Shown: piece after piece, positions 1 through 50,120 of the stretch
Numbering within the stretch: the first letter of the stretch is position 1
Layout: each line of letters begins with the position of its first letter
Origin: Sphagnum compactum
Taxonomy: Eukaryota
Length of the DNA stretch: 64,000 nucleotides
Assembly (NCBI GenBank): GCA_965153455.1
Contig: OZ234494.1
Coordinates: 4,464,001-4,528,000, forward strand
Reading direction: 5' to 3'
Notes under the pieces: generated by a model
What the model was told of the DNA's origin: nothing
What the model saw: the letters and a program-made list of their open reading frames with translations, nothing else
The model's database searches: none
Program-made: the position numbers and the translations under genes

Positions 1-443
1 ACCACCTTACACATACGTTGCGTCGTCTGGTATCCTCTCGAACAAGTAAGTGACTTGTCACACACATAATGGCGCTCAAGGATGATAATTATTCAACATA
101 CTAAATTGAAAACACATGGACGTCAGCAATGGAGAAGCTCAAGTGAATTAGTCCCCTTCTTCTACCAGAAAAATTGTTTCTATGGACTTCACATGACCCT
201 AAAATGTAGGGTTACCAAACCTTTTAGTTTACACTTTACGTGCTTTTGGCGTAAGCCTTGCGTGCATTTGAAGCTTGGCGGGTTTTGTGAGTAAAGAGGG
301 ATGTTAAAGAACTGCGATCCAAGCTTTAGTTGAATGTGGAACATATCGGCTGCATCGGGTTCGGAATTCTCGGTATAATTTTGGTCTTTCATTCAGGTTT
401 TGTCTCCCAGGATTGAGAGACAGAGACACACCTACACACAGAG

Positions 444-8091: not shown

Positions 8092-9724
8092 GCAGGCTGG
8101 ATATTCTCTGAATCTCACTACAAACTTTAATTGCTGACTTAACTGGAGCCCCTTCAAGACTACAACCTGAATCCCAATATCTAATAAACAAAATCACTTG
8201 TTGATTGGCAATAGTATGAGGTTATTTCTTTACAGGTTGATGAGCCCATCAAGCCTGTTCATCTTGTAGGTGCTGCTGCTGTGGGCAATTGTTGAGACAA
8301 TTTTAGAGGTATTCCTGTAAAAGTTTAACATTTTACTTCTCACCAAAAGTCTTCGGTGACTTTTAGTGGTCAGCCTGAGAACTGATCAGAGTCAGAGTCA
8401 GCCAGATGTCTTCGGTTTGTGAACTTGTTTGTAATTTAAATAGGATTTGCACATGAAGGGAGATGATTCTACACCAAACTTTACTGGCCAGGACTGCCTG
8501 CCTGGAGCTCTATTTCCTATACTGTGTTGATATCATCCTGCAGCCTCATGAGGTAGCTTACATTGCTATGACCTGTTTTGGCAAGCAGGGGTGGTATGTG
8601 CCAAACCCACAAACTATGAAGTTCTCCTGTTACTGTAAGAGCTGTTTCTGTGCTAGGAACTTCACTGTTTCCTGATGGGGTGTATGCTCCTCCCACTTGC
8701 ACTATGACTGATAAGATGGCTTCCGTTATGTGTGACATTCTGTCCCAAAGCTCAGCCCTCCCTTATCAACCTATGTACATACAGAGTCCCAGGCTGTAAC
8801 AAAAAACAGGAAGAGACCTGTGGCCGTTAACAGTGCTGTTTTTATGGTTCATAACTGGGATTATCAAAAATTCAAAGAATTGGTGCTACAATTTAAGCAG
8901 AGCTCTCAAAAAATCTGAAAAGAAAATTTGAAATAATCAGTTTTGTAAGTACCCATTCTGTACTGGCTCTTTCTTGAAAACTGCCAGTTCCTTGGGTGTT
9001 TGAAATAGTCAGATTCTGGAGGTTCTTTTCATTTTATTTTTCTTTCCAAAGAGCTGGTGGTTCTCTCAGTCTGAAATATTAAAAGAACCAGAGCTGGTGG
9101 TCTTTAACAAAATCAAAAACTTACTTGAAAGATTATAGCAATTGTCATACCAACTTGAACATCCTTTATTTGCCTGCCTTCATCCCACATTGTCAGGCCC
9201 AACTTCATTCCCCAGCATAAAATGATTGCCAGGTTTTGATGGCAGGCGCCTACCGGGTGCCTACATTAGTACCTTTTTGAAGTCAGGGGCATCCTGCCCA
9301 AGAGTGAAAGTGTGTGCATGTGAGTGAAAACAGGGTAATTGTTAATAAAATCATTTTTTGCCTAGCAGTAAATATTCCAGCAAGTACTGATAATTTTTTT
9401 TTACTTTGTTCTATATCAAAAATGGCAATGTATCAATGCATCATATTCCATCATGCATTATGTCATCATGCATCATGTTACATCATCAACATAAATCCTA
9501 CATATGTGTAAGGAAGGGTGGGGAAAATTTCAAAATGACTACATGCATAGAAACTTTATAGATGAACATCTAAATGTTTGTTTATTATACTATAATCGTT
9601 AATGTATCAAGAAATATTAGTACATTAAATTTTGAAAAATACATGGATAAGATATTATCATATTTCCAAGTTTTTGGGTAAGCTAAAGTAATTGTAGTTT
9701 AGTACCAAACCACCAATTTATTGG

Positions 9725-11160
9725 TGACACATGTGTGAACAATACATTGAATGTATTACTAATATTTCACACTTGAGAAATAAATGGTTACATATGAAAA
9801 CTTGACACCTAGCATATTTTAACAATTCTTTTTTATCATAACTAACTATAATTTACCATATTTTTTGATACACCAAGGATTTATTGATACATTAAGGATT
9901 TTTCAACCCATCTAAACATAGAAAGAGCAGAATTTTTTTCAGAATAAATGGACAAGAGGTGGCCACATTTCCCAGTTTATAGGTTAGGTAAAACAACTAT
10001 TAATTTAGTAAAAAACCCATAATTTACTATCAAGATGTGATGTGAGCAAGACATTGAATGTATTATAAACATATTTTCACACTTGAAAAATAAACCTTAC
10101 ATATGAAAATTTGACATGTAAAATACATTTACTCATTTTTCAGTAATAACTAATTATTATTAACCATATGTCATTAATACACTAAAACTTTTTTGATACA
10201 TTAGTGATGTGTCGATACACTAAGACTTTTCAACCCCTCTAAACATAAAAAGAGTGAAAAATTTTAAAAATAAATGGACAAAAGGTTGCCACATTTCCAA
10301 GTTTATAAATAAGGTAAAATAATTGTTAATTTTGTTAAAAACCATTAATCTACTATCAACATGTGATGTGAACAATACATTGAGTGTATCATAAACATAT
10401 GTTCACACTTGAAAAATAAACTTTACATATGAAAATTTGACACCTAATATACATTTACAATCCATTTTTTATTATAATTAATTAATGTTAACCATATGTC
10501 ATTGATACACTAAAGATTTGTTAATATATTAATGATCTATTGATACACTAAAGACATTATGATACATTAAAGATTTTCCAACCAGTCTAAACATAAAAAA
10601 AGTAGGAATTTTTTCAAAATAAATGGACAAGAGGTTGCCACATTTCAAAGTGTATGGGTAAAGTCAAAAATAATTAATTCAATCGAAATGCACCACTATG
10701 ATGCTAATTAATAAGATGTGGTGTGAACAATACATTGAATGCATTATAAACATATTTTCATGCACTTGAGAAATAAACTTTACATATGAAAATTTGACAC
10801 CTAATATACATTTACAATCTATTTTTATATTATAATTAACTATTATTAACCATGTGCTTTTAATACACCAAAGATTTGTTGATACCTTAATGATCTATTG
10901 ATACAAATAAATACCCTTTGATACACTAAAAATTTTATAGTCTATCTAAACATAGAAAGAATGAATTTTTTTTCAAAATAAATGGACAAAAGGTTGCCAC
11001 ATTTAAAGTGTATGGGTAAAGTAAAAAAGTAATTAATTTAACCAAAATGCACCACTATGTTACTAACACATGGTGTGAGTAATACATTGAATGTATTACT
11101 AGTATTTGACACTTGAAAAAAAAATATCTACATATGGGAAAATTTGACACGTGTTACACA
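9725..11160. repeat. Degenerate tandem array, ~4.5 units of ~310-360 bp
   Basis: 'tgtgaacaatacattgaatgtatt' at ~9733, 10040, 10367, 10722 and 11074; 'aaatggacaa.aggttgccacattt' once in each full unit. Confidence 0.85.
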
Positions 11161-12023
11161 TTTTCCACGACTTTTTGACTTTAAATAATTGATATTTGCA
11201 TTTGCTTGTTTATTATAAATATATGTTGAACTTCCAATGAAGATTTATTTTGCAGATTAGGGTTTGGGGTCGCATTTTTCAAGCTTTTGCATATCAAATT
11301 TGACATGAATTTCCTTTTCACATGATCTTCTTGTGTTATTCCAAGGGTGTTTTGGAGCACACTTTTGACATTTTTACAATTTTTTCACATATCATTGTGA
11401 CTTAATTCTATGTAAGTCAAAGATTTACCATTTTTAATTGTATGTTGATTATCACAATTTGAATGTAAGGTGCGTAGAAATTAATATCTTTTACAATTGT
11501 TCTTGCAAGCATGGAAGGGAAGTTGCCCTTGTATGAACATGGCCATCAAGTTGAAATGCAAGCATTAGAAAATGTAGTTCAAACACCACCAAATGGGCCT
11601 TTTGATCATGAAGATTAGTTGTGGGATGTTGTCATTCGACACATTGGGATGCAACAAGGCCCTTGCCTTGTTGAAGTTGCATTCATCCCCACAACTCGAA
11701 TGCTGATTCATAACTGGTGATAGAGGTAAAGATGGTGGACAATGACGCTTTCTTTGCAAAAAACACATCATCCACCTTGACAATGATTTTGCAACAACCG
11801 CAAATAGATAGTGCTTCTGAGTTTTCAAAGTTCAAATCTAAACTTTTATTACATTTTTGCACCAACATTTGCATACATATTATACATGTTTAGATGTGAT
11901 CTTCACCATCTGATGAATTAATTTTACTATTCTGTAAACATGAAATATGTGACTAATTGTTTGTTTTGTAATGCAATGTATGTTCATAAGTAGCACAAAA
12001 TTGGTTGGCCAGTTGTTTGTAGG

Positions 12024-18632: not shown

Positions 18633-21600
18633 CACTAGTAGAAATCAGCCAAAATGTAACCATTCCATTTACGACTACATGCGACTTGTAATCGTTTGCG
18701 ACTAGATTTGGGAATACTTGCAACTATAAGACCAAATTTCAACTATTTTGGTCATTCTCACAATTTTGATGCAACTATTAGAAATTTCATCCTATTGGTT
18801 GGATTGATATTTCCCATTAGTCGCAATAGTCATCAAATTAGTTATCTCCTAAAAGTATTCTTTAATGACATAGGGGTGTATTTTAGTGTATGTACTAAAA
18901 TTATATATAAATCTAAAATATGCATACATATGTATATTGTTCATATAATGAATCTCAAAATTAATATTTGAACTTTGAATTTTTTATTCAAATCTGAAAA
19001 TTATTATTTCAGTTGTTTAAAACATTATTTGAATTTCAAATTTTAGATTTTAATATGATATATTCAATTTAAATTCAAAAAAGGCCTATTTGATTTAAAA
19101 GTTGATATTTGAAATTTAAATTAATATTTTGGAATCCAAAAATTAGTATTTTAGATCAAAAAATTATTAATTGATTATAAAATGGAAATTTTAATTTTGA
19201 ATACTTTTATATGAATATGAAAATGTATATTTCAACTCTAAAAAATTTTCATTTAAATTTTAAATAATCATTTGATTTGAACCTGAAATTTCAATTTAGA
19301 ATTATTATTTTGGATTCTCAAAATTAGTACTTCCACTCTAAAAATTATTAATTCAGTCTAAAAATGGACATTTCAATTTTGAATATTTTTATTTGAATCT
19401 GAAAATCGACATTTCAATTCTGGAAATTGTTATTTAAATTCAAAAAAGTTATTTAATCTTAAAATTGATATTTGAATTCTAAATTATTATTTTCAAATCT
19501 AAAATAGTATTTCACTTCAAAAAACATTATTGAGTCTAAAAGTCGACATTTTGATTTTAAATTTTTTAAATTTGAACTTGCAATTTGATACTTGAATTCT
19601 GAAGTTTTAAATTTAAATTTTAAGAAATTATTTGACACTAAAGTCAAAATTTGAATTCCAAATTATTATTTTTGATTCTCGAAATTAATATTTCAATTCA
19701 GAAAATTATTAATTAAGTCTGAAAATTGACATTTCAATTCTGAAATTTGTTATTTAACTTCAAAATTTTATTTGATCTAAAAATTGATATTCGAATTCTG
19801 AATTACTATTTTGGAATCGTAAATTTATATTTTAATTCAAAAATTTATTGATTCATTTTAAGGGTTTTTTTTACTAGTGTTATCCATAATAGATTATTTT
19901 TATAAATAATTATGTCTATTAAATCTAAGTTACACTAAATAATTATTGTTATAACATAAATTTGCATATTATCTGAATTATATTCTTATATTAGAAAAAA
20001 TTTAATTAATGTAATTAATGTGACATTACTTTAAATTCATTGCAATTACTTTAGATAAGAATTAATTAGTATGTGCATAATTATGTTCTAATTAAACATA
20101 ATTATTCTCACATTGGATTTTATAACTTCAAACCTGAATCAAAAATTTGGAAAAATTATAGTGTAGTTAAAATAATTATTTTACTGATTTTAATTTCACA
20201 AATTATTATATAATAATCATATTATTAAAAATTCTGTGATTAATCATCTATGATAAATATTTTATAGTAATTTTACAGTAATTATTAAAATTAATGTTAT
20301 GTTTAACAAAATATTGTATTTATAGTTAATAATTACCAAGAATTTTTTTTTTGACCTATAATAATTTTACAACAATAAATGTAATTATATAATAATTTTA
20401 GTTGGATAATAATTTTAAAAAAAATCGTGTAAGAATTTACTTTCTAATAGCAATTATTAATTCATTATCCATAATTTTAACATAAATATTTAAAATAGTT
20501 AATTTTTAAATTATTTTATTAAATTAGTTTTACATTAATTATATTATATATAATTTGATCTGATTCTAAAAAATAATAGAATATTTTAAAATAAATTAGT
20601 TATCTAATTATTTATGAGTTATGTATTAACTTGTGAGTAACTAGATAGCTAGTTTGTTAAATATTAAGAAGTTATTGCTTATTTAAATAATTGATAACGA
20701 ATATTGAATATTTGTGGTGTATAATTTATAACTTAAATATATGTAAATTTAATTATTATTAATTAAATGATTATCTAATTATCTAGTACTTGAATTGTTT
20801 AGAAATCCAAAAAGTAAAAAAGTAAAGCATGAAGAAAGTTCTGGAATTAGAACCTAGTTTGTGAGGAAGTTGCAACTTCAAAACTTATCCCATATTGTTT
20901 GTTCTTCATTCCTATTTTGAACACTATATAAACAAGGGGGTATGGTCATCCAATTTCACATTAAGAAATTTGTGCACATGGGATGAGCTAATCAAAAGGC
21001 TCAACCCAAAATAAAAAAACAAATTATGCACATTTCTAAAGTACTTATCTACCTAGTTAGGTAGGTACCTAGTTTGACCTACCCACCTAGGTCGACCTAT
21101 GTACCTACCTACCTAAGTACTTACCTATATGAGTAGGTATTTAACCTAGGAAGGTAGAACCTACCTACCTATTTTTTTACCTAAGTAGGTAGGTTGGTAT
21201 GTAGCCTAGGTTTGTAGGCACCTATTTATGTACCTACCTAGGTACCTACCAACCTAATATTATTATTTTAATGCCACGTGGCATACTTACATTGGGCCAC
21301 GTGTCATAATATAATATCATCCAAGTATTATTTCATAATAGTTATAATAATAATAATAATAATTTATATAATCAAATATTAAGACACGTGGCAACACATC
21401 ATTTGCCCTCAATTGTGACCAAAATAGTTGCATCTTAGTCGCATGTGACAATACGTATACAATGGAGTCAAAGGATGAAATGTATTTGTTGACTTTTTCT
21501 TTTATACAATACCCTTCGTCATTTGTGACTAATTTATCACATGCAACTTGTCTTAGGCGACTAAAGGGATTTTAGTTGCAAAATGTCTCTTGCGACTAAA

Positions 21601-21646: not shown

Positions 21647-24600
21647 GATGCCTCCTCGATGAGTTGACCATTTTTTTTTCCCCATCAAATTATTGTGATA
21701 TGCAAAGTTTCAAAGTGCATTAGAACCACCTCCATATCCCACCTTGAATGTTGTCAATGCACGTCAATATGAAACATAAGACATCAACATCTTGACTTTG
21801 GCAAATTGGGTTGCATCTCGTTGATCTCAAGCTAAGTTGTGTAAAACATTATTGATAAGGCCACGCACAAATTCAGAAGAATTTTAGAATTATCCCACAA
21901 CATCCACATTGCAAGGAAAAACACACAAATAAATCAAAAAATACTTCACAATTCATGATACACATTGTGGGGCTCATACAATAATACATACAATGTACAT
22001 AATTCACTAATACATATAACTATCTTGATACCTTAATACATACATGTAACCTGATATACTAATATCAACATTTAACATAATACATTGATATAATATATTA
22101 ATGTATGATATAAATAAAGTTACAAGTAATAAAACATTAAAATGAAGTTATTCATACCACCCCAATGCAATATCAATGGCCAACTGTAGCTTGAAAGGTT
22201 GTTGTGAATGTATCAGTGGCTACAAAATGTTGATAGGTGTTAGCAAATTCGGATGGATTTTGGATTTTCCATTCCCAATTGACAAGCCCCATCCCACCTT
22301 CTAAGACATATTATAAGCCAGGTGTAGGATGTGCTTGTGGTTTGATTGGTCTTGGCATATTTTTCTCAAGTTCAGTAGCTTTGATTATGGCTATGTGGAG
22401 CACATCCTATCATTCTTCAACCAGCTTTAACTTCCTTTTGTCCTTGTCTAGAACCTTCTTTGCATTTGATGGAATTCCCTTGGGCAAACTCTTTTTTTTT
22501 TTGTTGGCAAGGGTTGTGCAAGTTGGGGCCAATGAAAAAGGCCACAATCTATCCCACCTATTGGCTGAAGGGAAGCCATGAGAGGTGTGGGTGTTGATAA
22601 TGAAAGAAGGAGAACTACATCTTTTGCAAATGTGACAAATTTTGTTTGCATTCCAATCACAATTGGAGGTGGGGGAGGTGGAATAGGGTTTGAAGATGCA
22701 GGAGGAGGTGGAATAGGAGCTAAACATGGAGGAGGAAATGCGGATGGGGGAGGAGGTGGGGAAGGAGGAGGTGAAGATGGAGGGGGGAAAGACATGAAGA
22801 TGGGATGGTTCAAATGACCCTTCCCTCCAGCTTTAGAACATGTGAAGATACAAGGGGCACCATAGGGTGTGCTTCATACCCTTGGGTTTTTCAATTGAAG
22901 CATCAGATTTGGCACCCTCCACAATGTAGAAAAATTGAATTGTTTTTTATTATCAATAAAAGAATGGTTTGAAATACATTTTACTTAATACATTACATAG
23001 ATTCTAAAACATTGATACATTGAAAGTTACATTAGTTTGATACATTCATACGTAGTTTTATGCAACTAAAACAATATAATGATATGTAGTGAACATTTCA
23101 CACCTTTGAAAATTTTAAAAACTTTTGCAAGTTTTTTTTTTTTGTAAACTTCACACTATTGTCATCCAAGTCTATCTCTTCTTCAATTGATGGTTCCTGT
23201 ATTGATACATACAATTTGATGCATAGTTACATATCAATTGATGTGTCCCACCTAATGCATAAAATTGTATACATTGATATACATGTCTATTACATTGATA
23301 CATATATAATTTATAATATTTAAAACTATGATAGTACAAAGTGAGGTTGATTTCACACCTTTGTAGGTTTTGTGTGCTTTTTCATAATTCTTTGTTTTGT
23401 GACTTGCACCTTAAAGTTTGTCTCCTTTTCACTTGTTGACTCCTACATTGATAAACATGTAGTTTGTTATAGTTGAAACAATAATAAAACAAAGTAAGGG
23501 AGATCTCACACCTTTTCTTTACTTGATGATTCATGTAATTTCTTTGCCAAGCTCCTATGGTTTTGAGCTCTCTTGGATCCTTTCTTTTTCCAAAGGCTTC
23601 TTTAAACATGAAATGTTTTTAGCTACAACCTGCAGCTTTTTTTTTCCTTGGCTAGACTCAAACATAGGACAAGGTTTCAATGCAAGCTTGTTACCTTGTT
23701 CATCCAAGGCCTAATTGTAGCCTTGGATAGCTCAATGATGATTGAGCTAGATCTTGTTGGAAAACAATGCATGGCGATAACAACACTCAAAAATGTTTCT
23801 TGTAGCGTTAGGTAGTTTTTTCTTATTGGCATTACATTCTTATATCAATTGCTGGACTTATGTCCAACCTTCATATGTAACCTCAATTGCCTTCCCATCA
23901 ATCTTAATTGAAAGGGTGATTGATTCAATATTTGACATCTTTGTAAAACCCGAAAAAAGATCAACAAAAGTTATCAAATCTCTACATTGTCAAATTGTTA
24001 CATAATGCACTAATACACTATTACATTGTGTATAACATTAATACACTAATAGATTATGTATATTGATACATTGATACACTAATACAATATGTAACACAAC
24101 CAAATATTAGACATCTAAGCACTAAGGTGATACATTGAAACACATAAATTTGATAACAACATTATGGAAATAGAAACCAACTTGTGTACAACATATAAGT
24201 GGATGTAGATGAAATATTATGTAAACACAACAAATGACACTAGAAAAACTTACAATTAAAGTAGTAACACATTGCACAAATCATGCCTTCAAACAAAAAT
24301 ATAATTAACATTGATAGATGATGAAAATATAATGAAAGATGACGCCAAAGTGATCTTCTATAAAATGTTCCTTTCAAGGAACCACGGTTCACTACAATAT
24401 GATTGAATGGGCAATTCAAATATCAAATGCCTTATATGAAGGTACAACAGTGTGAGCATGTGTTGCCACATCAAATTTACAAAGTTACATTATGGCATCA
24501 ATCATAGTGCACTAAAAAGTCTAAACACGTACCTCCTCCTTAGCAAAGATGCACTTGGGGATAAATTTCAAGGTGCTTTGGATCAATGATCAATTCTACG

Positions 24601-24715: not shown

Positions 24716-25448
24716 TGACGCGTTTCGAAGCTCCTTGATAGACTCAAACGTGAGTCTGGTTTGAAACAGCGAAAGAATAGGGAGTTGGAGCACGTTCCCT
24801 GACTCGCAGCACTTTTGGGGGGGGGGGGGCGTGCTGGAGCTCCGGGATGGGACTAGAGAGAATGACAATCAATCATTCACACGGACCTGCACAAACTAAA
24901 CACAAGTTGGTTAGTGCAAAATTGGAGCACTTTTGGACTCCCGCAATTTTAGGGACCCATAACTTTGCGTTCAGACCTCCGATTGAGATGAGGTCTGAAG
25001 TAAAGTTGTAGCCCTCGTTGAGAGATTTCCAACGATATGTTGCACACTACCTGCATGCAAGGAATCCGGGTCGATTCCCAACTTTCAGTGGTCAGAAGTC
25101 AAATTGGCAATTTGACTCCTGACCCTTCTTTTGACCATAACTTGTGTTAGAAGTGTCCAAATGGGTCATGCGAGCCCATTTTAGACATCTACATTCCAAG
25201 AACTTTCCAATGATATAAGGAGCTCCTTAATCCATTGGGTTTTGACCCCTGCAATTGATCTTTGAAGATTTGAGAGTCCACCGGGACTCCAACTTCCAAA
25301 GTGGGAGTTCCCTTGGGAGTGAGAGGGGTCATTCCCTTACACTTTCCTACACTCTCGGGAGTACAAGATGTGACTCTTGGGCCTCCTCTTGGCCCGCACC
25401 CTTGCAAGCCTTCGCTTTGGCCGCGAGCCCAAGGCTAGGGTTGCGACA
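24716..25448. mobile_element. Solo LTR (TG...CA), internally deleted copy, 733 bp
   Basis: Starts TGACGCG, ends GGGTTGCGACA, perfect 5-bp TSD AGAAG; homologous to 48953-49824. Confidence 0.85.
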
Positions 25449-30680: not shown

Positions 30681-33569
30681 TTTATTCCAAATTTCAATTT
30701 TGTTATGAACATAGGACCTTTGAGTTGAGCTTGTATTATGTCAAATAATTTCCAATTTTTCAAGGGGCCTTTTATTTGCAGAATATTAATTTTTTTACAT
30801 CTAATTTTTTGAGTGATTGGAAACTAATAATCACACTAAAAAGACACTCAATACTGAAAAAGTATGTAAGTTGAATTTTATTGAAATTTAGAGTTGTTTT
30901 GAAATTCAAGAGTCCTTTACAACATCTAAATGGGGATTAATGTATATGGTGTATGAAGTAAAGTTGTAGTTTAAAATATAAAAAACTAAATCATGAAGTC
31001 ATCAATGCAATTTTGTATGGTTTGACATGTTTTCAAATGCACCACAATTGTAGGCACAATTAAAATAAAAAAAATTGGTCCAGTATTGATGTCACTTAAC
31101 TAATGAATTACTTGTATCTAATGCCTAGCCTAGTTGAGGCCAATTTGCAAAAAACCCCATGCAAAGATTCCATCTAGGGTACACACACACATTGATCGAC
31201 TAGAAAAAGGTCCGTTTACACATTATACAAAAAAATTCAACAGTTTTCATCTCAAAAATAATGGATGTGTTATAGATGTATAGCAAATTTTCATTCATGG
31301 CCAAAACCCTAAATGGTTGCATCTTCACCGCTCCTCATGATCCAATGATCCAAGATTTTCCATTTGAACACGTTTGTTTCCCCTGCAATCATTGCCCAAT
31401 GCAATTGTTAGAGAAAAATGTTCTATCAAGAATGAGCATGTGTGCTGAAGTTTTCCTTAGCACTCACATGTCCTTTTGTTTCACATGATTGAAAGGGATA
31501 CTTGCAGGAATGAGTGTGTGCATTAAAACTTCAAACATTCCTATTGTTATTATATGCACAGGATTCCACTGAGACAAACGTTGGTAGGGAGTGAACATGT
31601 GTATATGACATATTTTGCACCCACCATTAATATGTTCCATGCAACTAGGAGGGACATTATTTTCCTATAGGTAGCTTTTCCACTAAAGTTGTAAGAATAT
31701 AGTTTGAAAGTTTTGGTTTGGATCCAATCTCCTTTGTTCAAAAAGTTGGAGCTCATGTCTATGTGTATATTAGTCATACAAGTACCCAAACAGTCAGCAC
31801 TTGGGGCTTTTCCAATGACCAATCGAAGGTGGGAAGAATGCTTAGCACACTCAAACGCAATGATGAAGCAGATCCCATCATGAGTTGGACCCAAAATCTA
31901 CATTTTGAAAGGCGTGCCTTCTATGAAAATGACCTTCATTTTGCTAGCGCATGATGCAAACCTCTTCTTTATCTTTTAGGATGGCTAACTTGGTGTTGGA
32001 ATAGTCTGATCTATACTAGTTGTATTTTGGTCTGCAATTTTTGAAATTTTCTATGATCTAGCTTGGATTAACCTTGATTAATGTAGTTTTGTAAGTTATA
32101 ATAATGTCATTGTTGGTTCTTTCAAATTTTGTAGATCCAGTTCCAATACCTCAAATGCGGTAGTTTTAAAAAACTTAGACACAATGTAAGGTCGATACCA
32201 AAAGATGAACTTTATGTGCAAAGGTTGGCGCAGGATCATAGTTGGTTCAAGATTTCAAAATCTGCAATTCCACTTCCAGTGCCTCAAATGCAACACTTTT
32301 TGAAAACTTGGACACCATGTAAGGTTCATACTAGAAGATGAACTTTCTGAAAAACTTGGTTGGTGTAGGACTTCATAGTTGTATATCTAGTTCTAGAATT
32401 TCAAATGTGACAATTTTTGAAAACTTGGACACGATGTAAAGTTAATACCACAAAATGGCTTTCTATGCAAAGGTTGGCAAACTTGGTTTCAAAACCAACT
32501 AATCATTCAAGGGTATGTGATTGGAAACATTTGATGTTCTTGCTAGTAGTGGAGATTTTAGTGAACACTTAGGCCTTATCCTATATTCAAAGGTTTGATA
32601 TTTTTGTACATTTGAATTTTGATGACAAGTTTTGCATGGAATTTTTGTAGCTTGTAGGCTCAGAAGGAAGCATTTTGGAATGGTTTGATTTAAAAAAAAA
32701 GTGGAACCCTTATCAACATGTGTGAATTTTATGATTATGCATGTTTTAATGGATGGACCAATCCTCCTAGGATATGTCAAAATTGATTTCAGGTATGTTG
32801 TTATAGGTCTATTCCATTTCTTGTTTTGAAGTATCTGCACAAGTTCCATGTACAAATTCAAATGTGTAAATGTACACCAAAATGGGATACGTCTAATGTT
32901 ATATCATGAACTTGGGAAATTAACTGGCTTAGCCTTTTTTTGCTTTAAATGGGTTATTGTTGCTACTTGTAGGTGGACTATCCATGTTTTTGGACACTTT
33001 TCAATATAAGCTATTATGCTTGTTGCAACATCAATCTTCTGGACTTAATATGAACTCCCCATGGAGTAAGAAAATATCATTCAACTGATTTCATGAGCAT
33101 CAATTCACATTCATCTTCCATAAATGCAATTAGCAACCATGTTTCATCACTCAATTTTTTTCTAATTTTATCGAATTTTTTAAGCATCGTTATCTCTAAT
33201 TTTTTGAATTTAACCTCTTGAAGTGTGAGCAATTTGCTATCTTGCAAGTTCTCCATTTCAAGTGTTGAAAGTTCCAATGGTAGTTCAATATGTTTATTAA
33301 ACTATGATTTAAAAAAGATTAGTTATTGTTCAAGCACTAGAAATCTTAGTTCAACAACACAAAAAGGTGCTTACTAACTTAACCTACACCTTAAAGTTCT
33401 AAATAGTAAGCCATTGTCCAATTAAAAGTATTTGAGTCCTTCTCTTGGCACCTTCTACTATGGATTTAAGGTTGTGAATCTTCAGCTTAACTTTGAATTC
33501 CTTAGGTTAGTAGTATAATTCAATCTATAATCATTTGAACTCCTTGGTTCAACACTTAAATACTTTTTT

Positions 33570-34560
33570 TCTTAGTACCCAAAGTCATTGACTCACCATT
33601 GTGGTTCACTTAAACACCTCATCTCAATCCATTAATATTGTCTAGTACTCATTATGTTTATTAAAAACATTTTTAGCACGTAAGGTCATTGAATTAGCAC
33701 TGTGGTTGTTTTTAAAGACCTATTTTCATATCATAATATTGTCCATTTCTTTCATATAGTACTCATTGTGCTTCCTTAAAGCACTCCTACATTCATAGTC
33801 ATTGAATAAACACCATGGTTGGTTTTCAACACCTACTGTCATTCAATTAACATTGTCCACTTATTTTACAATATTCATTGTGCTTCTTAAAAGCACTCCT
33901 AGCAACCATAGTCATTAATGAAGCATTGTGGCTAATTTCCAAGGACTTCTTCTCATGCCATTAAGACTATCCACTTTTTTTATAACACTCATTGTGCTTC
34001 CTATAAGCACTCCTAGCAACCATAGTCATTAATGAAACATTGTGGCTAATTTCTAAAGACTTTTTCTCATGCCATTAGGATTGTCCATTTTTTTTATAGC
34101 AATCATTGTGCTTCCTAGAAGCACTCATAGCAACCATAGTCATCGATGAAACATTGTGGCTAATTTCTAAGGACTTATTTTCATGCCGTTAGGATTGTCA
34201 AAAAAATTCATACTACTCACTATGCTTCCTAGAAGCATTCCTAGCACTCATGGTCATTGAATCGGCACTACATGGTCGGTTTTTCAGCACCTATTGTCAT
34301 TCCATTAACATTATCCACTTCTTTTATTCTATTCATTATGTTTCCTAAAAGCATTTCCAACCCTTTAAGTCATTGATGAGGCATTGTGGCTAATCTTCAA
34401 GCAACTATTTTATTCCATTGGACTATCCACTTCTTTTTTAACATCCATTTGTTTCCTAGATACATTCATAGCACCCATAGTCATAGAAGTAGCACTAATG
34501 TGACTTATTTATAAACACCTACTTCTATTCCAAGAGAATTTTCCACTTCTTAAATGAAAT
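33570..34560. repeat. Tandem array, ~8 units of ~114 bp
   Basis: 'actcattgtgcttcct..aagcactcctagca.ccatagtcatt.atgaa.cattgtggctaattt' recurs at ~33760, 33873, 33986, 34100, 34215 and 34330, with degenerate flanking units. Confidence 0.9.
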
Positions 34561-36840
34561 ACATAGTGATTAAATGTGGAAGTTGTTGTTTGAGTGGTAG
34601 TACCATGATACTAGTTCTGTTTTTTTGTTGTGGCAAACTTGTCTCATGTGTATAATTTGTTATTCTGCTATGGTAGACTTATTTCATGTATTGTCCAAAT
34701 TTGATTGCCAACATCATAATTTGATATTGCTTACACTAGTGATTATTCTTTCTTGGATGAAATGTGTTTAGATTGCAACTCAAGTAATTAGTTTTTTTAT
34801 GCTAAAGTGTAAGCTCAAGCTTTGGACATATTGTGATAAAATTGCAACAAGTGTTAACAATGGGGCCATGCCATCAATTGATGATAATTGGAATTTTATC
34901 AAAAATTGTTGGTTGTTCAAGTGATGAAAGCTGAAAGACTAGAAATAGAATTCAAGAGGAAAAGAAATCAAAATTACAAACGGGCATCTTGAGCACGAAA
35001 TGTTGTTACAAATGAGGAAGCTCAAAGTCGCCTTGTACTTTCAAGGCGAAGAACAAATGGTGATGAGTACATGTTCACTTACATTACCAAGGTGGCGAAA
35101 CTGTCAATTGCATTGGTGGCCATAAATTATGTTATACAACTAGTGAATGACTTATTGGGGTATGATGTGGAATTTCAACAGAAGGTGATTGAAAAGATAT
35201 TCCAACATGAGTCGATGAAGCCACTCATTCCCTCTTTTCTGGCCAATGTAGTAGAGACAAAAAATAATCACCTTATTGTTGAGAGCATCAAAAGTGGAGT
35301 GTCTATTCACATAGCACTAGACGCACTACTAAACATGTTGCTGCAAAAAAACTTTTAGGCACTTTGCCTTCATGTAAGCATGCAAGTGGAGGAAGGTTGT
35401 TAAGCACCTTGGGCTTGATAGGAGGTGCATATATCAAAGCCTGCAACAGGTTGTAAATTCTTTATGGTGTACCAAAATTTAATCACAACATCACCCTTTT
35501 CTGTCTTTTTTGCCTAGTCTTTTTTTACCATGTAAAAACACATTTATGGATGATTATGATGGAATCTAGAATTGTAATGGTTTAAAATATAGTCCTTTTG
35601 AAATATTTGACAACTTTTTACTCTTTTTCTTTTATGGGGATCAAGATATAGGGTGAAAAAGGACTACAGAAAGGATTAGGCCCTTTTCATCCTATGTGGT
35701 ACACCTTGAAGGATTTTCGCCCAACAACGTCTACTTATTGATGATGGCATCTTGGATTTGGTCTAGGACAAAAAAATAAATACGATATGATGCACTTTCA
35801 ACAAAAACAAAAACGCTTGTTGTGGAATGGTGTACCATGGAAACTACTATCTCTCTTGATCACAAAAGAAAAGAATTGGGGTTAAACAAACTATGGAACA
35901 TCCCACCCACTTTTTGCAAGTTTCACAGGTTAGCATATTCAACAACTTTATATGCTCATGTAGTCTTTTACAAATTTTCCAACTCTGATGCAAATAATCT
36001 GACACAAGTCTTTTGTGGGCTTTGTTTTTTTCCCTTCTGTTTCAATTATAGGTTATGTACTTCACACTTATCTTTTCATAATTTTTATTAAACTTGTCAT
36101 TCACAAGGAACTTTTTTTTGTATGTATAATATGTGCATTGTGCATTATAGCTGGAATTATTCACAACATTCAAAGAGAAACACCCCAATGTACAGATTGA
36201 ACTCACAAGTTTTTCGTGCCTAAAACCCTAGTTTGTGAGGCAAATGAAAGACTAGAGTATTTGCTATTGCCGTTACCACACTGAACTCTTAGAATTGAAG
36301 ATTGGCCTTAACAACATGCGGTCCAAAACAGGAGGTGTTCATGCTAATTGTGGTTGTAGGAGTGCTGATATTTGTTTTCCATTAGGTGCTCTGGACATGG
36401 GTGAATGCTACACAAATCTAGTGTCATTTTCTAAGCTAACTAACTCGTGGAGTTGCATTTTATGTCCCAAACCAGATGGGAGTGAATGGCATGAATGGGG
36501 GTGTCTTATGGGTAATTGCACCTTGTGTGGAATTCAAACTTTGAAAGTCTTACCCTATGTGAGGCAACTTTCTATCCATCTACTCCCGGTTCTACAAGGC
36601 GACTGTGCTTGGAAGCACAAAAGCTATTGGTGAAGGAAAGATGCAAGTATGATTCTACATGTTAAATTGCGTTTGTAGTTGAAATTAAGTTCTCCTATGC
36701 ATCATTCACGATTAGGATTGATAGATATATTTTTTCCAAGCTCACACGCTACACATTCTAGGACTTTATATCAAATTGTCATTCATTTAAACCAATGTTT
36801 AAAGACTCAACACCATGTCCAACATAGCTGCAAACCATCA

Positions 36841-37375
36841 GTCACTTAAAACATCATTTCTAACACATACATTATTCAAATCCATCTTGCCTTAGCTCAT
36901 TGGAAAGCTAACTACAAGGCGCACCTTCCTACCAAAACTCAAGATCTGCAGCTAAACTAGTGAAGAGTTATACCACCAAACCCGAGAGGGTTTTGCGAAG
37001 GCAGTTGTTCAACTTGACTGTAGACCTCTAGTCACTCAGAATATTGTTTCTAACACATATGGTATCCAAATCTGGCTTGCCTTAGCTCATTAGAAAGCTA
37101 ACTACAAGGCGCACCTTCCTACCAAATCTCAAGATCTGCAATTAAACCAGTGAGGAGTTATATCATCAAACCCGAGAGGGTTTTACGAAGGCAGTTGTTC
37201 AACTTGACTACAGACCTCTAGTCACTCAGATTATTGTTTCTAACACATACGGTATCCAAATCCGGCTTGCCTTAGCTCATTGGAAAGCTAATTACAAGGC
37301 GCACCTTCTTACTAAATCTCAAGATCTGCAGCTGAACCAGCAAGAAGTTATGCTATGCAACTCGAGGGGGTTTAT
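36841..37375. repeat. ~2.8 tandem copies of a 190-bp unit inside the TG...CA element
   Basis: 'gtcact' unit starts at 36841, 37031 and 37221; the units share near-identical 'cttgccttagctcattggaaagctaactacaaggcgcaccttcctacc'. Confidence 0.95.
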
Positions 37376-37625
37376 GAGCTTTCTCTAAAGTTCCAATCTT
37401 CCAACACTATCACTACCTACCCCCATTCCTTCAAAACTATTACAAGATTTTCGTTCTACTTCCCTTTCCCTCCCCTCTCCTAAGACTAATCATTCTTTTC
37501 CTCTTCATGAAGGTTTTGGAAACAAGTATTCAAGATTGAATGAAAATTATCTACGAGGCAAAGAGAGAGACCCCAATCATCCGAGTCCGCTTTTTGAAGA
37601 AAAAGAGAAGGGAGGTGAAGGTAGA

Positions 37626-37855
37626 TTCCAAGCTTGGTGGCCAATGGAAAGTTCCATGCTTGGTGGCCAATGGAAGGTTCCAAGCTTGGTGGCCAATGGA
37701 AGGTGAAGGAGAAACACCTTTTCACCTCTTCCATTTTCCCCCCAACAAACTTTACTTAAACCTTCAATTTTTTTTCCTTTGACCTCACGGTTTTACTTTA
37801 CCATGGTTTTAAGCCGTTACTCGCGCCTTCCTTTCCTTTTCTTCGATCTATAAAT
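37626..37855 (+). promoter_or_regulatory. Putative Pol II promoter: three 26-bp CCAAT-containing repeats plus TATA box
   Basis: 'ttccaagcttggtggccaatggaa.g' x3 with CCAAT at 37641, 37667 and 37693; TATAAAT at 37849-37855, ~100 bp upstream of the ATG at 37949. Confidence 0.5.
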
Positions 37856-37948
37856 TGCGACTATGCACCTCAATGTAACAAGTCCTTCGCACCTTCATTG
37901 TCGATTTGATTTGGTTGAAGATCTGACCTTTTTCCTCTCCTTGAAATT

Positions 37949-38371
37949 ATGGCGTTGCACACGGGCACATCATACGGGCCGTAAGCCGCACAAGCGAATG
38001 AAGAACCACCTCTGGATTCATCTCTAGATCTTACCTTGACACAGCATCCTCGTGACGAAGAACCCGAAGCTCGAGAAGTGCGTGCTCGTCTTGAAGTTGA
38101 ACCCCCTCGAGCCTGATATTATCGTATCTCTCCGAACTCTCGCACCTTGGTGATCTAGCTACAAGTCGACCCCGCTTCTGGTGACGAACCCGAGACCGTT
38201 TGTGAAGGTTGTTACGAAACTGAAGATATTTCTATCTTCGCATGGTCTTCGGTTCCAGGTGTTGGACACTATTGTTGGTTGCGCGGTCCGATTCGTCGCC
38301 TGTCTCCTAATAGCAAGGTGGACTACCTAGTTCGCACCATCCGACGCATCCTAGATTTCTTGCAGCTGTGA
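37949..38371 (+). pseudogene. Cryptic 140-codon ORF of unknown function inside the TG...CA element (three in-frame stops)
   Basis: MALHTGTSYGP*AAQANEEPPLDSSLDLTLTQHPRDEEPEAREVRARLEVEPPRA*YYRISPNSRTLVI*LQVDPASGDEPETVCEGCYETEDISIFAWSSVPGVGHYCWLRGPIRRLSPNSKVDYLVRTIRRILDFLQL*. Stops at 37982 (TAA), 38114 (TGA) and 38156 (TAG). The GC/CpG-rich stretch coincides with the frame; AATAAA at 38442. Confidence 0.6.
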
Positions 38372-39829
38372 ACTATTAGTATGGCATAGCCCAAAATTTT
38401 AAATGTACTTGCAGCTCCTTGCTGAGCTTAACCTTATTCTAAATAAATGTTTCAGTTATCATTAGATTCTTGTTGCCATTGGCACACTATCATACTATCT
38501 GTTTAATCGTTGAATTGCCTCGAATTAACCTTATGTTCAACGGCTTGAAGATTGTTCTATCTCTATTAGACCTTTCATTAACACCCCCTTCAATTGTTTC
38601 AAGAATTTTTAACATGCTTGCTACTCCCTAAATACCATAACCAAACTAATGTTGTGTTGAACACCGCTAGTTTTGGTGTCTTCTTCTACCCCCAACCCTC
38701 TAGAGATTTCTCACCCCTAATTACGCAACAAAGTTTTTAAAACTATGGTTATAAGCCTTCGTTGAAGAAAAGAAGTAATCCAACTTCTTATTCACCAATA
38801 ACGCATTTCAGAAAAGAAAACAAACCCCCCATGCACCCAGGGCATTCATCACTCCCAATGAAGTCGCTAAAAGCCCTTAATAACCTTACCCCACTCAAAT
38901 AACCCTGATGTAATTCTAAAAAAATTGAGATTACCGCACATGGTTATGTCGGTATGGCTCACACCCTATTGAAGAGATTGAGACTTTAAAGACAATGCAA
39001 TGGTGTTGATATGGAAAGGTGGTGGTTGGTCAGAAAGACAATGCTGATGATCGAAAGGTAACATAATTACAATATATGGATACTTCCACACGAGAATTGT
39101 TGGACTACCTACGCCCTAGATTGGTGGATTTTGTAATCCACAAATTTGTAGCCCAATGGCAAGATAAGGTATGAAAATGTAGTCCAACATGTGTATTTTG
39201 ATCTTACATGTATTTGAGTTAGAATTGTTGGCAAACAACTTCAAGCTTCTAGAATCATGCAAAGCTTACTATTTGTGGCTTGTCTTCATAGGAATTCAAG
39301 GCCTTTCTAGCAAACATCCCTGAAGATACAAACCTCTCATGCATTGATGTTTTTGAGAATTATGCCTTCAAGATGCAAAATGAAGTGCAGGACATGCATT
39401 GGTACAACTTTCAAATCACCATATTGGTGCATATCATTTATCGAGTCAACCCAACTTTTGATTCAACACTTGCTCAAAGAACTCACGAATTTTGAAGGTC
39501 CATTACTATATTAGTGATGACAAGACCCATGATTCACTCTTTGTGCAGCATGTGTCAAGCCTACACTATGACTACTTGAAAGCAAAGGGGTGTTATCCAA
39601 AACACCATGTGGTTTGGTTGGATGGGTGTTTAGCCCAGTTCAAGTGTGCACAAGCATGGTATTTTATTGCTCGGTATCCACAACTAACCATTTGTGATGA
39701 GAAGTTGGAAGGGGTCAAAATGTGTTGGAATTACTTTCCATTTATACATGGGAAGGGGGAGGTTGACGGTGTAGGTGCATTTCTAAAATGCAAGATTCGG
39801 AAATAACAAATCAAGCCACAATAAGGTTC

Positions 39830-47155: not shown

Positions 47156-50120
47156 CACTAGAATAAATCTTGTCCATAGTAGCATGATGTTTGTGATTAG
47201 TGTGCAACTAGACTTGTCTAAATCAACTCATTTTGCAATTACGTCTATAACAATCCTACGTAGTTGCAATAGTTACAATTATTTGTAGTCACATCTATGA
47301 TTACATTATGATGCATTTAAATCTGAGTTGTACATGCAACTACAATTTGTGACTATCATAGATTTAGATGTAAAGATTGACTAAAAGTACGCATATGTCA
47401 TCCATTATAGTGGCATTCATTGATGGTTAACAACTAAGTTGCAAAAGCAATTGTAGTTGTAACCATACATAAAGGATTAAATGACACATGATATCTTATT
47501 TCAATTCAAAATGTACAAAGTTCATTTATTATTTAATAGGTAGACTAGAAAAGGTTATTATTACCATGTGGGTGAAAGAATGGTTGAAGGAGGCAAAGTA
47601 TTCTCCCAAATGGTTTTTTTCATTTGTCCTTAACAAAGTACTCAACACTAAGATGATGTAAGAACCAATGGAATTTGAATGATGGAATCACAATATACAT
47701 GAAACCAATGACCAAATTCTAAAAGGGTTTTAAAATTCAATATGACCACATTGTACTTTGGTTGTAGTAATGAATGTCCTAATCAAGAACTTAACACAAC
47801 ACATGATTTTAACTAATACTATCAAACTTTGGTGTTTTCAAGAAATGAAAAATTGCCACCATCTAAGACAATCATCTATATTCGAGCATTTTAAAATTAT
47901 GTTCACACAATTTCATAATCAGTTGGGATAATGCATTGAAAATCAAGTTGTTAAAAAATTGGCCATTGAAAGGAGTATATAAAAAATTTATGGTTTCAAT
48001 GAAATATTTGGTGCTAAATTGTTCTTACAACTATCCTTGAAAAGATCATGTTGTTGGATTTTTTAAAACTTCAAATGGCCTAATATCTTCAAAAAAATTG
48101 TGTCTTGACACTCACACCAAAGTAGCCCAATTTTTTGCATGCATTAAATCATGATCTTAAAAATTCATGTATAGAATTTTATTCTAAATTTATTCAAAAA
48201 ATAGGCATAAGTGTTATGGACAATTTAACAACTTGAAAAACTTCAAAATGAAATTAGGTGAAAGTTTGAAATTGAATGCACTTCTAAATAAATCAATGCA
48301 CATTTCATTGTAATTCCACATCAATATGGTCATAATAACCTTAAATGATACCACATACTTTTAACATCCTACCGTTTAATTTGAAAACAAAGTCACATTT
48401 GTATTGGGCCTTTATTAGTATTGCAAATACATCCAAAATTGTAACACCCAACCATGTTTTCAACCTAGTAGGTTGGTTAGGCTAGGTTAACCTAAGGTAA
48501 ACACATGTTACCAACCTATTTTTTTCCTAATTAGATGCATAAGTAGGCCATCCACTCACCTATTTACATATTACCTACCTTCTTAATTACCTACATAATT
48601 AGTGTATGTATTAAAATGTGAAATAAATAAACTTTGACAAAATTTATCACCTTATAAAATTGTGATGCAATGCTTAAAGGCTTGGTTTATACTTGTGCAT
48701 GTGAAGGGTTCAAGTCTTCATACTTGCACCTTAAGTGCTAGCGTAAAATAGGCTAGGCTAATCTAGGTAGGCCTAACTTAGGTTAGGTAAGTACCCATTA
48801 TTATACTTAAGTAGCTAGGTAAATAGGTACCTAGTTTAGTATGTTAGGGTAAACACTTATTACCTACCTACCTACATTATTATCTTATTTAGGTAGGTAG
48901 GTAGGTAGGTTACTAGGTTATTAGGTTAGGTTATGCTACATTCCATTAAGTATGACGCGCTCCCAAGCTCCCTGATAGACTCAGGATGAGTCTAAAGTAA
49001 GAAAACAACGAAAAGGTTAGGAGCTCAGGGCACGTTCCCTAGCTCTTAGCACTTTAAAGAGGTAGAGGGGCGTGCTAGAGCTACGGGATGGGACTACGGA
49101 GAGTGACAAACAATCTATTTACTCACTCGAATCTACATCAAACCAACCAACACGCTGGTTAGTACAATGTTCGGGCACCTTTGGTGCTAGGACGAGTCAT
49201 GGGCGACCTCGGATTCACAAGACTCACCACGGCCCGGACTCGGAGGAAGCCACCACCTTCCCCCATATAGTATACTATGCACCTCTCCATGAGGCCTACA
49301 TCCAAATGACTTTTTGTCCCGAGACTCCCAAAATTGGCAAGGTTGGAATTCTTGCAACTTTGTGAGGCTATAACTTCGTGCTCAGACTTCAGATTGGGAC
49401 GAGGTCTGAAGCAAAGTTGTAGCTCTCATCGAAAGCTTTCCAATGGTGTGTCGCACGTCACCTGCACGCACAAAAATCGGGTCGATTCTTGACTTTTCGT
49501 GGTCGGGAGTGAAATTGCCAGTTTGACTTTTGGCCTTTCTTTTCGCCATAACTTGTGTTGCAAATGTCCAAATGGGTCATGCGAGCCCATTTTAGACATT
49601 TACACTTGAATATCTTTCCAATGATATAAAGAACTTCCCAATGCGAAATGTTTTGACCTTTGCAATTGCTCTATGAAGGTTCAGGAGTCCACCGGGACTC
49701 CAACTCCCAAAATGGGAGCTCATTTGGGAGTGTGAGTCTTCATTCTCACACATTCTCACTCCTCTGGCCCACGCCCTTGTAACACTTTTTGCCTTGGTCG
49801 CGGCCCAAGGCTAGGGTTACGACAAAGTAATGAGGACACTTGGCATTATACAAATACACATGTTGACCTAGTTGCAAATGTAGTCACAAAGTCAAATTCC
49901 ATATAAGCTAAACAAGGTCCATGTCATATTCATGTTCCTTCATGGTAATGGATTAAAAATTGGATTCAATTTGCAAGGTTTTGTAACAATTATGTAACTT
50001 TAATGCCATGTGGTGTTTTCTGTGACTAGTTGTTTGATGGCACTTGTTTTTTTATGATTAGATCATTTGCAATCACAAATGTCTATTATAACTAAAATCT
50101 AGTCCCTAGGGAGATTATTT
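47156..50120. mobile_element. Non-autonomous CACTA-like element (right end degenerate) containing a solo LTR
   Basis: Left end CACTAGAATAAATCTTGTCC; sub-terminal GCAACT/AGTTGC/GTGACT repeats at 47200-47460 and 49860-50100; internal (TAGG)n tract. The right TIR is not clearly resolved. Confidence 0.55.
48953..49824. mobile_element. Solo LTR (TG...CA), 872 bp
   Basis: Starts TGACGCGC, ends AGGGTTACGACA, perfect 5-bp TSD AAGTA; same family as 24716-25448. Confidence 0.85.

Follow-up and report, generated by a model that had tools for sequence, protein, structure and literature searches.

An LTR-like insertion with an interrupted reading frame

The DNA analysed here (the window) is a stretch of 64,000 nucleotides from the moss Sphagnum compactum (contig OZ234494.1), and the subject of this report is a 2406-bp insertion on its + strand (36558-38963; all coordinates are those of the window) that resembles a long terminal repeat (LTR) and encloses an interrupted open reading frame (ORF) of 140 codons (37949-38371). 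Direct reading combined with a script check placed the termini of the unit at TGTGAG (36558-36563) and CTCACA (38958-38963), which form an exact 6-bp terminal inverted repeat. The unit is bounded by a perfect target-site duplication, CCCTA, whose left copy occupies 36553-36557 and whose right copy occupies 38964-38968. Both the coordinates and the letters agree with a preliminary description of this DNA, which had also reported the unit to be free of gag-pol and transposase sequence. Consistent with that report, the ten stop-to-stop ORFs of the unit (62-140 amino acids, one of them the 140-codon frame read with X at its stops) gave nothing meaningful against Pfam, with a best E-value of 0.17.

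The frame runs on the + strand from an ATG, which has A at -3 and G at +4, through 140 codons to a stop codon, with 1391 bp of the unit to its left and 592 bp to its right. It contains no frameshift relative to intact relatives and is broken by three internal stops, at codon 12 (37982-37984, TAA), codon 56 (38114-38116, TGA) and codon 70 (38156-38158, TAG), as had been described beforehand. The frame also coincides with the CpG-rich stretch noted at that time: it forms a sharp GC/CpG island (GC 0.515, observed/expected CpG ratio 1.15, 32 CpG), compared with a CpG ratio of 0.46-0.54 elsewhere in the unit and 0.28 over the whole window. By itself the frame is not beyond chance, because 5.2% of all 141-codon windows in this stretch contain three stops or fewer and the window holds ten comparable, non-overlapping ATG-to-stop frames.

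Intact copies and distant relatives of the frame

A protein search for the near family, with the frame read with X at its three stops as the query and a cut-off of E<=0.01, returned 1495 proteins among 1520 candidates. Per-copy statistics were taken from the best 120 of these 1495 matches, which are 81-91% identical to the frame; 58 of the 120 are intact and exactly 140 amino acids long, and the last six residues are identical in 97 of the 120. At codons 12, 56 and 70 the intact copies encode Gln, Trp and Leu, respectively, in at least 90% of the best 120. The three stops are therefore not retained by the other copies, and the residues found in their place differ from the Gln, Arg and Gln that had been predicted.

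Compared with the family majority, the window copy differs at 13 of 140 positions, comprising the three stops and 10 replacements. Parsimony applied to its codons indicated that about 10 of these 13 changes are C>T or G>A, several of them at CpG. The preliminary description had invoked methyl-cytosine deamination on the ground that each stop is a single C-to-T change away from CAA, CGA or CAG, a relation that the genetic code makes true of every TAA, TGA and TAG and that is thus uninformative. Deamination is nevertheless a fair general description of the decay, but it does not account for all three stops, since the stop at codon 70 requires a transversion and so is no deamination product. Likewise, a CEGC...HYC cluster that had been singled out in the restored protein is partly an artefact of decay, its third Cys being a decayed Arg (the family majority has Arg here). 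The copy of the gene in the window is dead.

Beyond the near family, an exhaustive HMMER search of 1.84 billion representatives (50% clustering) yielded 243 matches at E<=1e-3. Many of these are fragments or frame-shifted near-family copies, while the full-length relatives among them measure 136-151 amino acids at 31-44% identity (P0152, 137 amino acids; P0158, 140; P0173, 136; P0174, 138; P0232, 140; P0245, 151). Among 4834 candidates, a profile built from the relatives picked out 1367 further proteins at E<=1e-3, whose modal lengths are 137, 140, 142 and 143 amino acids. At 60% identity, 127 proteins resolved into groups of 96, 17 and 6, the near family, a two-domain pair and four singletons. 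Six UniRef names fall in the group of 17, each of them a 'Predicted protein' of Physcomitrium patens (A9U3L7, A9U4D8, A9U2D2, A9U4A2, A9U4P7 and A9U550; 133-178 amino acids), and these six paralogs are 80-89% identical to the query member of their subfamily. The group of 96 includes an unnamed protein of Sphagnum tenellum (132 amino acids). The only named relatives come from these two mosses, which points to a moss as the probable host of the element. Measured against an intact member of the near family, identity is 45-47% for the Sphagnum and Physcomitrium groups and 32-42% for the remaining ones.

Full-length relatives overall share 27-48% identity and keep the length, the start, the stop position and a core motif. 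This core reads GHYRWLxGP ... RRILxFL, and in each group the stop codon follows two residues later (...FLxx); in the Physcomitrium and Sphagnum homologues it takes the form GHYRWLRGP...RRILDFL with the same end point. The C-terminal ~85 residues align readily across groups and the N-terminal ~50 vary, although the alignment, read by eye, shows that an N-terminal motif, SQ-x-P-R-[DE]-E-E-P, is kept and is followed by Arg-rich stretches. In ten sequences drawn from distant subfamilies, the columns H107, L111, G113, P114, I134, F137 and L138 are invariant.

No described family was matched by these proteins. In Pfam the ORF had no match at E<=1 and nine relatives of 136-180 amino acids had none at E<=0.1; an NCBIfam search with the family gave no match; a profile search of the PDB returned nothing (best E=0.81); and the ESM Atlas gave no usable match for P0010 and P0294. 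The initial impression that the restored protein resembles nothing recognisable thus held in Pfam, NCBIfam and the PDB, and in the Foldseek searches reported below. The protein family is large, not previously described, and has neither a name nor a known fold.

Two members stand apart from the rest. P0217 (299 amino acids) and P0243 (231 amino acids) contain the domain twice in tandem, with GHHRWL cores, behind an unrelated N-terminal sequence, and judged from their sequences may represent a version of the family that is cellular or has been domesticated. A member of the Sphagnum group, P0299, bears the Joint Genome Institute name 'transposase InsO family protein', yet is an ordinary 142-amino-acid member.

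Constraint and predicted fold of the protein

As a proxy for constraint, per-site variability in 120 near-family proteins was compared with conservation between subfamilies. At non-CpG sites variability was 0.026 for 20 conserved positions and 0.109 for 39 non-conserved positions (Mann-Whitney p=5e-5), so that sites conserved between subfamilies are about four times less variable within the near family. Across the 97 non-CpG codons, variability and conservation were inversely correlated (Spearman rho -0.43, p=1.3e-5). Purifying selection on the protein can be taken as shown by the distant relatives, because neutral DNA would be neither open nor alignable at such distance.

Alignments and structure prediction both delimit a conserved folded domain at residues ~55-140 (38111-38368, + strand), where the AlphaFold2 predicted local distance difference test (pLDDT) is 67-94 over the blocks of this domain. 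The model, computed from 133 sequences, has a mean pLDDT of 65.9 and a predicted template modelling score (pTM) of 0.47; an earlier model from 31 sequences (pLDDT 51.6) was not used. Residues 1-46 are disordered in the model, strands are predicted at 56-59, 66-74, 83-91, 95-99 and 116-118, and a C-terminal helix spans 123-137 with a pLDDT around 90. Foldseek comparison of the model with the PDB and BFVD gave no matches at E<=1e-3. The insignificant top rows included COMM domains and PUR/Whirly-type proteins and were not used as evidence. A homodimer predicted for residues 50-140 scored 0.01, a value that carries no weight either way.

The Arg-rich stretches and the conserved acidic motif of the disordered tail suggest a nuclear adaptor-type protein, as judged from the sequence and the model. 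An EAR-type LxLxL motif in the N-terminal tail was also considered; in the alignment it was read in only some subfamilies, and it was therefore set aside as a family feature.

Repeats, motifs and shared context around the frame

The + strand of the unit carries, in order, tandem repeats of 190 bp, three 26-bp units each with a CCAAT box, TATAAAT, the frame and AATAAA, as first described. The 190-bp repeats comprise three tandem copies (36816-37385), of which the second and third are 84% and 74% identical to the first; Tandem Repeats Finder (TRF) delimited them as 36857-37351 with 2.6 copies and 89% matches. They are putative enhancer-type repeats of a U3 region. The 26-bp units were placed at 37620-37704 by repeat analysis (37626-37704, x3.0, by TRF). 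Each contains a 10-bp perfect palindrome, CCAAGCTTGG (in one unit CCATGCTTGG), followed by GGCCAATGG, which holds the CCAAT box. Palindromes of this kind are a site type suited to a dimeric DNA-binding protein. Direct reading located a putative TATA box, TATAAAT (37849-37855), 94 nt upstream of the ORF start, and a putative polyadenylation signal, AATAAA (38442-38447), 71 nt after the stop codon.

When all 385 fetched proteins were compared with the window by tblastn, 411 high-scoring segment pairs were obtained, all of them inside the 2406-bp unit. Other copies, in other frames or with frameshifts, align over 37593-38666, and at least 1.07 kb around the ORF consequently belongs to the repeat family. 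Among these translations of other copies, six span the TATA box, two span AATAAA (P0134 and P0135) and one spans the CCAAT repeats (P0189). TATAAAT and AATAAA follow each other on the same strand and are both spanned by other copies, both being short motifs.

Taken together, hundreds of intact 140-residue copies, relatives at 27-48% identity and a shared context bear out the proposal that the interrupted frame derives from a real gene within an LTR-like unit. That the 140-residue protein gene is real and under constraint can be stated with high confidence.

Relatives that adjoin retroelement-like sequence

A search for longer homologues recovered only two fused forms, P0271 and P0235. In Physcomitrium-type fusions the domain stands in single frames with a weak DUF4100 match (22.9 bits, cutoff 27.9) and a Retrotrans_gag match that is likewise below threshold (E=0.23); in our own reading of the sequences, such fusions also appear to join the domain to the start and end of an aspartic protease. 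The literature searched contained no mention of DUF4100, and searches of the PDB (including a 693-amino-acid fusion protein) and NCBIfam with the fusion proteins returned nothing.

The domain was seen together with gag-like or protease-like pieces in P0271, P0235, P0246, P0236, P0198, P0234 and P0256, in orders that differ from protein to protein. These differing orders may reflect rearranged elements, nested insertions or assembly chimeras.

A derivation of the ORF from the gag gene of an internally deleted element was considered and rejected, as the ORF and nine relatives gave no Pfam gag match. The weak gag match of P0271 (E=0.23) falls in a region of its own that adjoins the domain, so that gag-like sequence lies beside the domain and not within it.

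Identity of the insertion

The integrase of LTR elements leaves a signature of TG..CA ends, a short inverted repeat at the termini and a duplication of 5 bp. The unit at 36558-38963 shows the TG...CA termini and short inverted repeat that mark a solo LTR, and the CCCTA duplication (5 bp) falls within the 4-6 bp that directly flank such LTRs. High copy number, a further hallmark, was seen indirectly, via the encoded proteins only: the ORF is matched by 1495 clusters at 90% identity, and single clusters stand for up to 182 member sequences. According to passages of PMC6317226, LTR-element duplications are 4 or 5 bp long and TG/CA served there as a search criterion.

No second copy of the unit was found within the 64-kb window, and no terminal direct repeats were found inside it. 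A mini-element of the terminal-repeat retrotransposon in miniature (TRIM) or large retrotransposon derivative (LARD) type was dropped, as the unit has no terminal direct repeats. In Pfam searches, the 106 scanned ORFs of at least 75 amino acids that lie in the window outside the unit showed neither a reverse transcriptase nor an integrase or a gag domain, comparison of the unit with prokaryotic genome contigs gave 0 related loci, and Rfam and tRNA scans of the window gave no matches.

On its sequence hallmarks the 2406-bp unit is probably a solo LTR, and the Physcomitrium-type fusions lend some indirect, though weak, support to a retroelement origin. The ordinary and most likely explanation of such a unit is that the two LTRs of an inserted element recombined with each other, and its parent was most likely a high-copy LTR retrotransposon.

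A model for the element and its competitors

The explanation that we favour, with reasonable though not strong confidence, is that the insertion is a solo LTR of a high-copy retrotransposon and contains a decayed copy of a genuine accessory gene of ~140 residues. In this model, which is built from motifs in the DNA, an LTR promoter composed of the 190-bp repeats, the CCAAT/palindrome repeats and TATAAAT would start transcription ~30 nt past the TATA box. ATGs at 37863 and 37873 probably lie upstream of the start site, because they are no more than 25 nt from the TATA box; this would leave the ATG at 37949, which has a good context, as the first usable one of the transcript. AATAAA, 71 nt past the stop codon, would end the transcript, so that each LTR could produce an mRNA of ~0.6 kb. 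The stretch from TATA box to poly(A) signal would formally be the R region and could be expressed by full elements and solo LTRs alike, and in any read-through genomic RNA the ORF would come first among the cistrons. The protein may act in trans in the nucleus to the benefit of the element family; we would guess at a role either in the control of LTR transcription or silencing, or in the handling of element RNA. The palindromic repeats upstream of the gene would be a candidate target of the protein.

The full form of this proposal goes further and is tentative, and we rate it as rather unlikely in its entirety. It holds that a moss LTR would constitute a complete gene for a nuclear protein of ~140 residues, set between its own promoter and poly(A) signal and older than the split between Sphagnum and Physcomitrium. 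Every LTR, among them thousands of solo LTRs that outlast their elements, could thereby supply a trans factor with control over the family's transcription or silencing, perhaps via the palindrome/CCAAT repeats.

Several points weigh against the favoured explanation. The LTR identity of the unit is read from structural hallmarks only. TATA and AATAAA are short motifs that are frequent by chance in AT-rich DNA. The link between the relatives and retroelements, which consists of Pfam matches below threshold and readings by eye, is weak. If the genomic RNA started at this TATA box, translation of gag would be hindered by an upstream ORF of 140 codons whose ATG has a good context. The count of intact copies is no measure of selection, as the database holds open frames only; for the same reason changes from Trp to stop are censored, which inflates the constraint test somewhat. 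No relative in sequence or structure hints at an activity.

Two competitors accept the gene and the LTR and differ in how the ORF would be transcribed. According to the first, which we consider doubtful, no separate short mRNA exists; the ORF would open the genomic RNA as its first cistron or as a leader ORF, being a 5' additional ORF that in this family falls by chance ahead of the LTR boundary, and solo LTRs would be silent for the protein. This arrangement would fit the Physcomitrium-type sequences, in which the gag-like part follows the domain on the same strand at a distance of a few hundred bases (P0198, P0234, P0236 and P0271), and 5' additional ORFs are known in plant chromoviruses from passages of PMC11728184. 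It does not account for AATAAA 71 nt past the stop codon, which two other copies span, nor for the window unit having its own TATA box and no gag.

The second, which appears unlikely, treats the ORF as a self-standing gene nested in U3 with an internal promoter of its own, comparable to sag in the LTR of mouse mammary tumour virus. The genomic RNA would start further downstream, for example after TTATAAG near 38750, and would contain the ORF only at its 3' end. Such an arrangement would remove the long upstream ORF ahead of gag, and the 592 bp of LTR on the 3' side of the ORF are long for a U5 and include TATA-like and AATAA-like strings. However, the second promoter consists of short motifs read by eye, and it is the upstream TATA region that other copies conserve (six alignments), though both models fit this last observation.

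The remaining readings are improbable. One regards the unit as a non-autonomous cargo element or other transposon and not as an LTR, an idea that gains from the single visible copy, from the lack of gag-pol nearby and from the 106 ORFs outside the unit without reverse transcriptase or integrase. We know of no plant DNA transposon superfamily that pairs a 5-bp duplication with 6-bp inverted ends. Moreover, solo LTRs arise routinely by recombination, and a lone LTR-like unit without a primer-binding site, a polypurine tract and a second R could not replicate by itself, and the duplication, the TG..CA ends and the inverted repeat point to an LTR integrase (PMC6317226, in part).

It is equally improbable that the ORF is a fragment of a host gene transduced into the LTR, the home of the family being a cellular gene. 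The two-domain proteins P0217 and P0243 could be cellular, but every subfamily is multi-copy with a microdiversity like that of transposable elements (1495 and 1367 clusters), the six Physcomitrium paralogs are 80-89% identical to their subfamily's query member, several members are fused to retroelement-like sequence, and no named cellular family was matched. Very improbable indeed is a functionless chance ORF that was present in a master copy and passed to its young copies: taken by itself the frame does not exceed chance and a database of open frames yields many intact copies of any young high-copy repeat, but relatives at 27-48% identity from at least two moss genera and several further lineages keep the length, start, stop and core, and the near family shows site-specific constraint.

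Surroundings of the insertion

The only recognisable cellular gene in the window is a multi-exon gene on the + strand (417-8088) for a GH127 beta-L-arabinofuranosidase-like protein with a C-terminal AbfB domain. Pfam assigns six of its ORF pieces to PF07944 or PF20736, and one to PF05270.

Cys-rich ORF pieces flank the insertion on the + strand, at 36256-36557 (...CPKPDGSEWHEWGCLMGNCTLCG...) and 38964-39806 (...WLDGCLAQFKCAQAWYF...HGKGEVDGVGA...). Neither has a Pfam match, and inspection revealed no reading frame across the empty insertion site; the pieces may be the remains of another mobile-element gene. Further out, two direct copies of ~0.6 kb (24716-25346 and 48953-49755), 73-79% identical and 24 kb apart, bracket the region of the insertion, and may be either a dispersed repeat or the ancient LTRs of a large element that has since decayed.

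Three tandem-repeat arrays with diverged units occupy 9627-11196, 18950-19849 and 33569-34551 (69-77% identity between shifted copies), the second of them in a very AT-rich stretch (GC 0.24-0.26). On the - strand at 22413-22873, overlapping frames of 140-141 amino acids with Pro/Ser runs (PPPSPPPPPS...) and no Pfam match are probably low-complexity DNA.

Comparison with known systems and significance

Passages of PMC7264820, PMC6317226 and PMC11728184 document extra ORFs of plant LTR retrotransposons in the internal region. The present ORF resembles these additional or extra ORFs (aORFs or eORFs), among them Ogre ORF1, the antisense ORFs of Retand, Grande and RIRE2, and the 5' aORFs of Tekay, in being an extra frame that is conserved within its family and, as they mostly are, without a recognised domain; among open copies it is conserved in most members of the family. 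It differs from them in place, since aORFs and eORFs lie in the internal region, either ahead of gag or past the end of pol, whereas the frame at 37949-38371 lies inside an LTR-like unit without gag-pol and not between LTRs. It also differs in size: extra-ORF surveys were limited to at least 250 codons (PMC6317226, in part) or to a minimum ORF length of 300 (PMC11728184, in part), and 140 codons fall below these limits. The proteins of Tekay 5' aORFs are likewise largely disordered, Pro-rich and predicted to be nuclear, as excerpts of PMC11728184 describe them. Domains typical of aORFs in Pfam (PMD, Transposase_28 and ATHILA ORF-1) have no match in the present family. For mosses, the relevant passages of PMC6317226 describe no extra ORFs in chromoviruses of the Tcn1 clade and the Phygy clade. 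Ogre and Retand, which the preliminary description had taken as its frame of reference, are probably inapplicable, as the only named relatives are moss proteins.

Two other kinds of element offer partial parallels. Retroviral genes do occur in LTRs: sag of mouse mammary tumour virus (MMTV) lies in U3, and nef of human immunodeficiency virus (HIV) overlaps the 3' LTR. As is probable in the present case, the frame is within a terminal repeat, and is hence duplicated at both ends of the provirus, but these are mammalian retroviruses that use spliced or U3-initiated RNAs, and no relation in sequence or fold to the present family was found. VANC proteins are anti-silencing proteins of VANDAL transposons, and provide the functional model behind the anti-silencing role suggested in the preliminary description. 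They too are small transposon accessory proteins, and the non-coding parts of their elements have short tandem repeats; VANDAL, however, is a DNA transposon, and the likeness to the present family is one of description only. VANC of VANDAL is mentioned in PMC11728184, as its accessible passages show.

The closest parallels are the Physcomitrium and Sphagnum tenellum proteins, which are true homologues of the window family but belong to different subfamilies and are uncharacterised. In Physcomitrium, 72% of 696 transcript assemblies of transposable elements were shorter than 1 kb and represented LTR-retrotransposon fragments such as LTRs, and LTR-retrotransposon assemblies below 1 kb were discarded in that study (PMC7466625, in part). 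Transcripts of a mini-gene within an LTR would have landed among these discarded assemblies. In the full-text literature, where subscription journals are thinly covered, no description of an ORF inside a plant or moss LTR was found.

Searches for extra genes in plant retrotransposons have been confined to the region between the LTRs, and LTRs are treated as non-coding. The new element of the present proposal is a retrotransposon accessory gene placed inside the LTR, in comparison with the extra ORFs known from internal regions. Physcomitrium offers homologues, transcript atlases and gene targeting for direct testing. If the proposal is true, moss genomes harbour a large, unnamed and unannotated family with thousands of copies and no known fold, and models of gag translation past a long upstream ORF and of host silencing would need a new player. 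Solo LTRs, in turn, could remain genetically active sources of protein.

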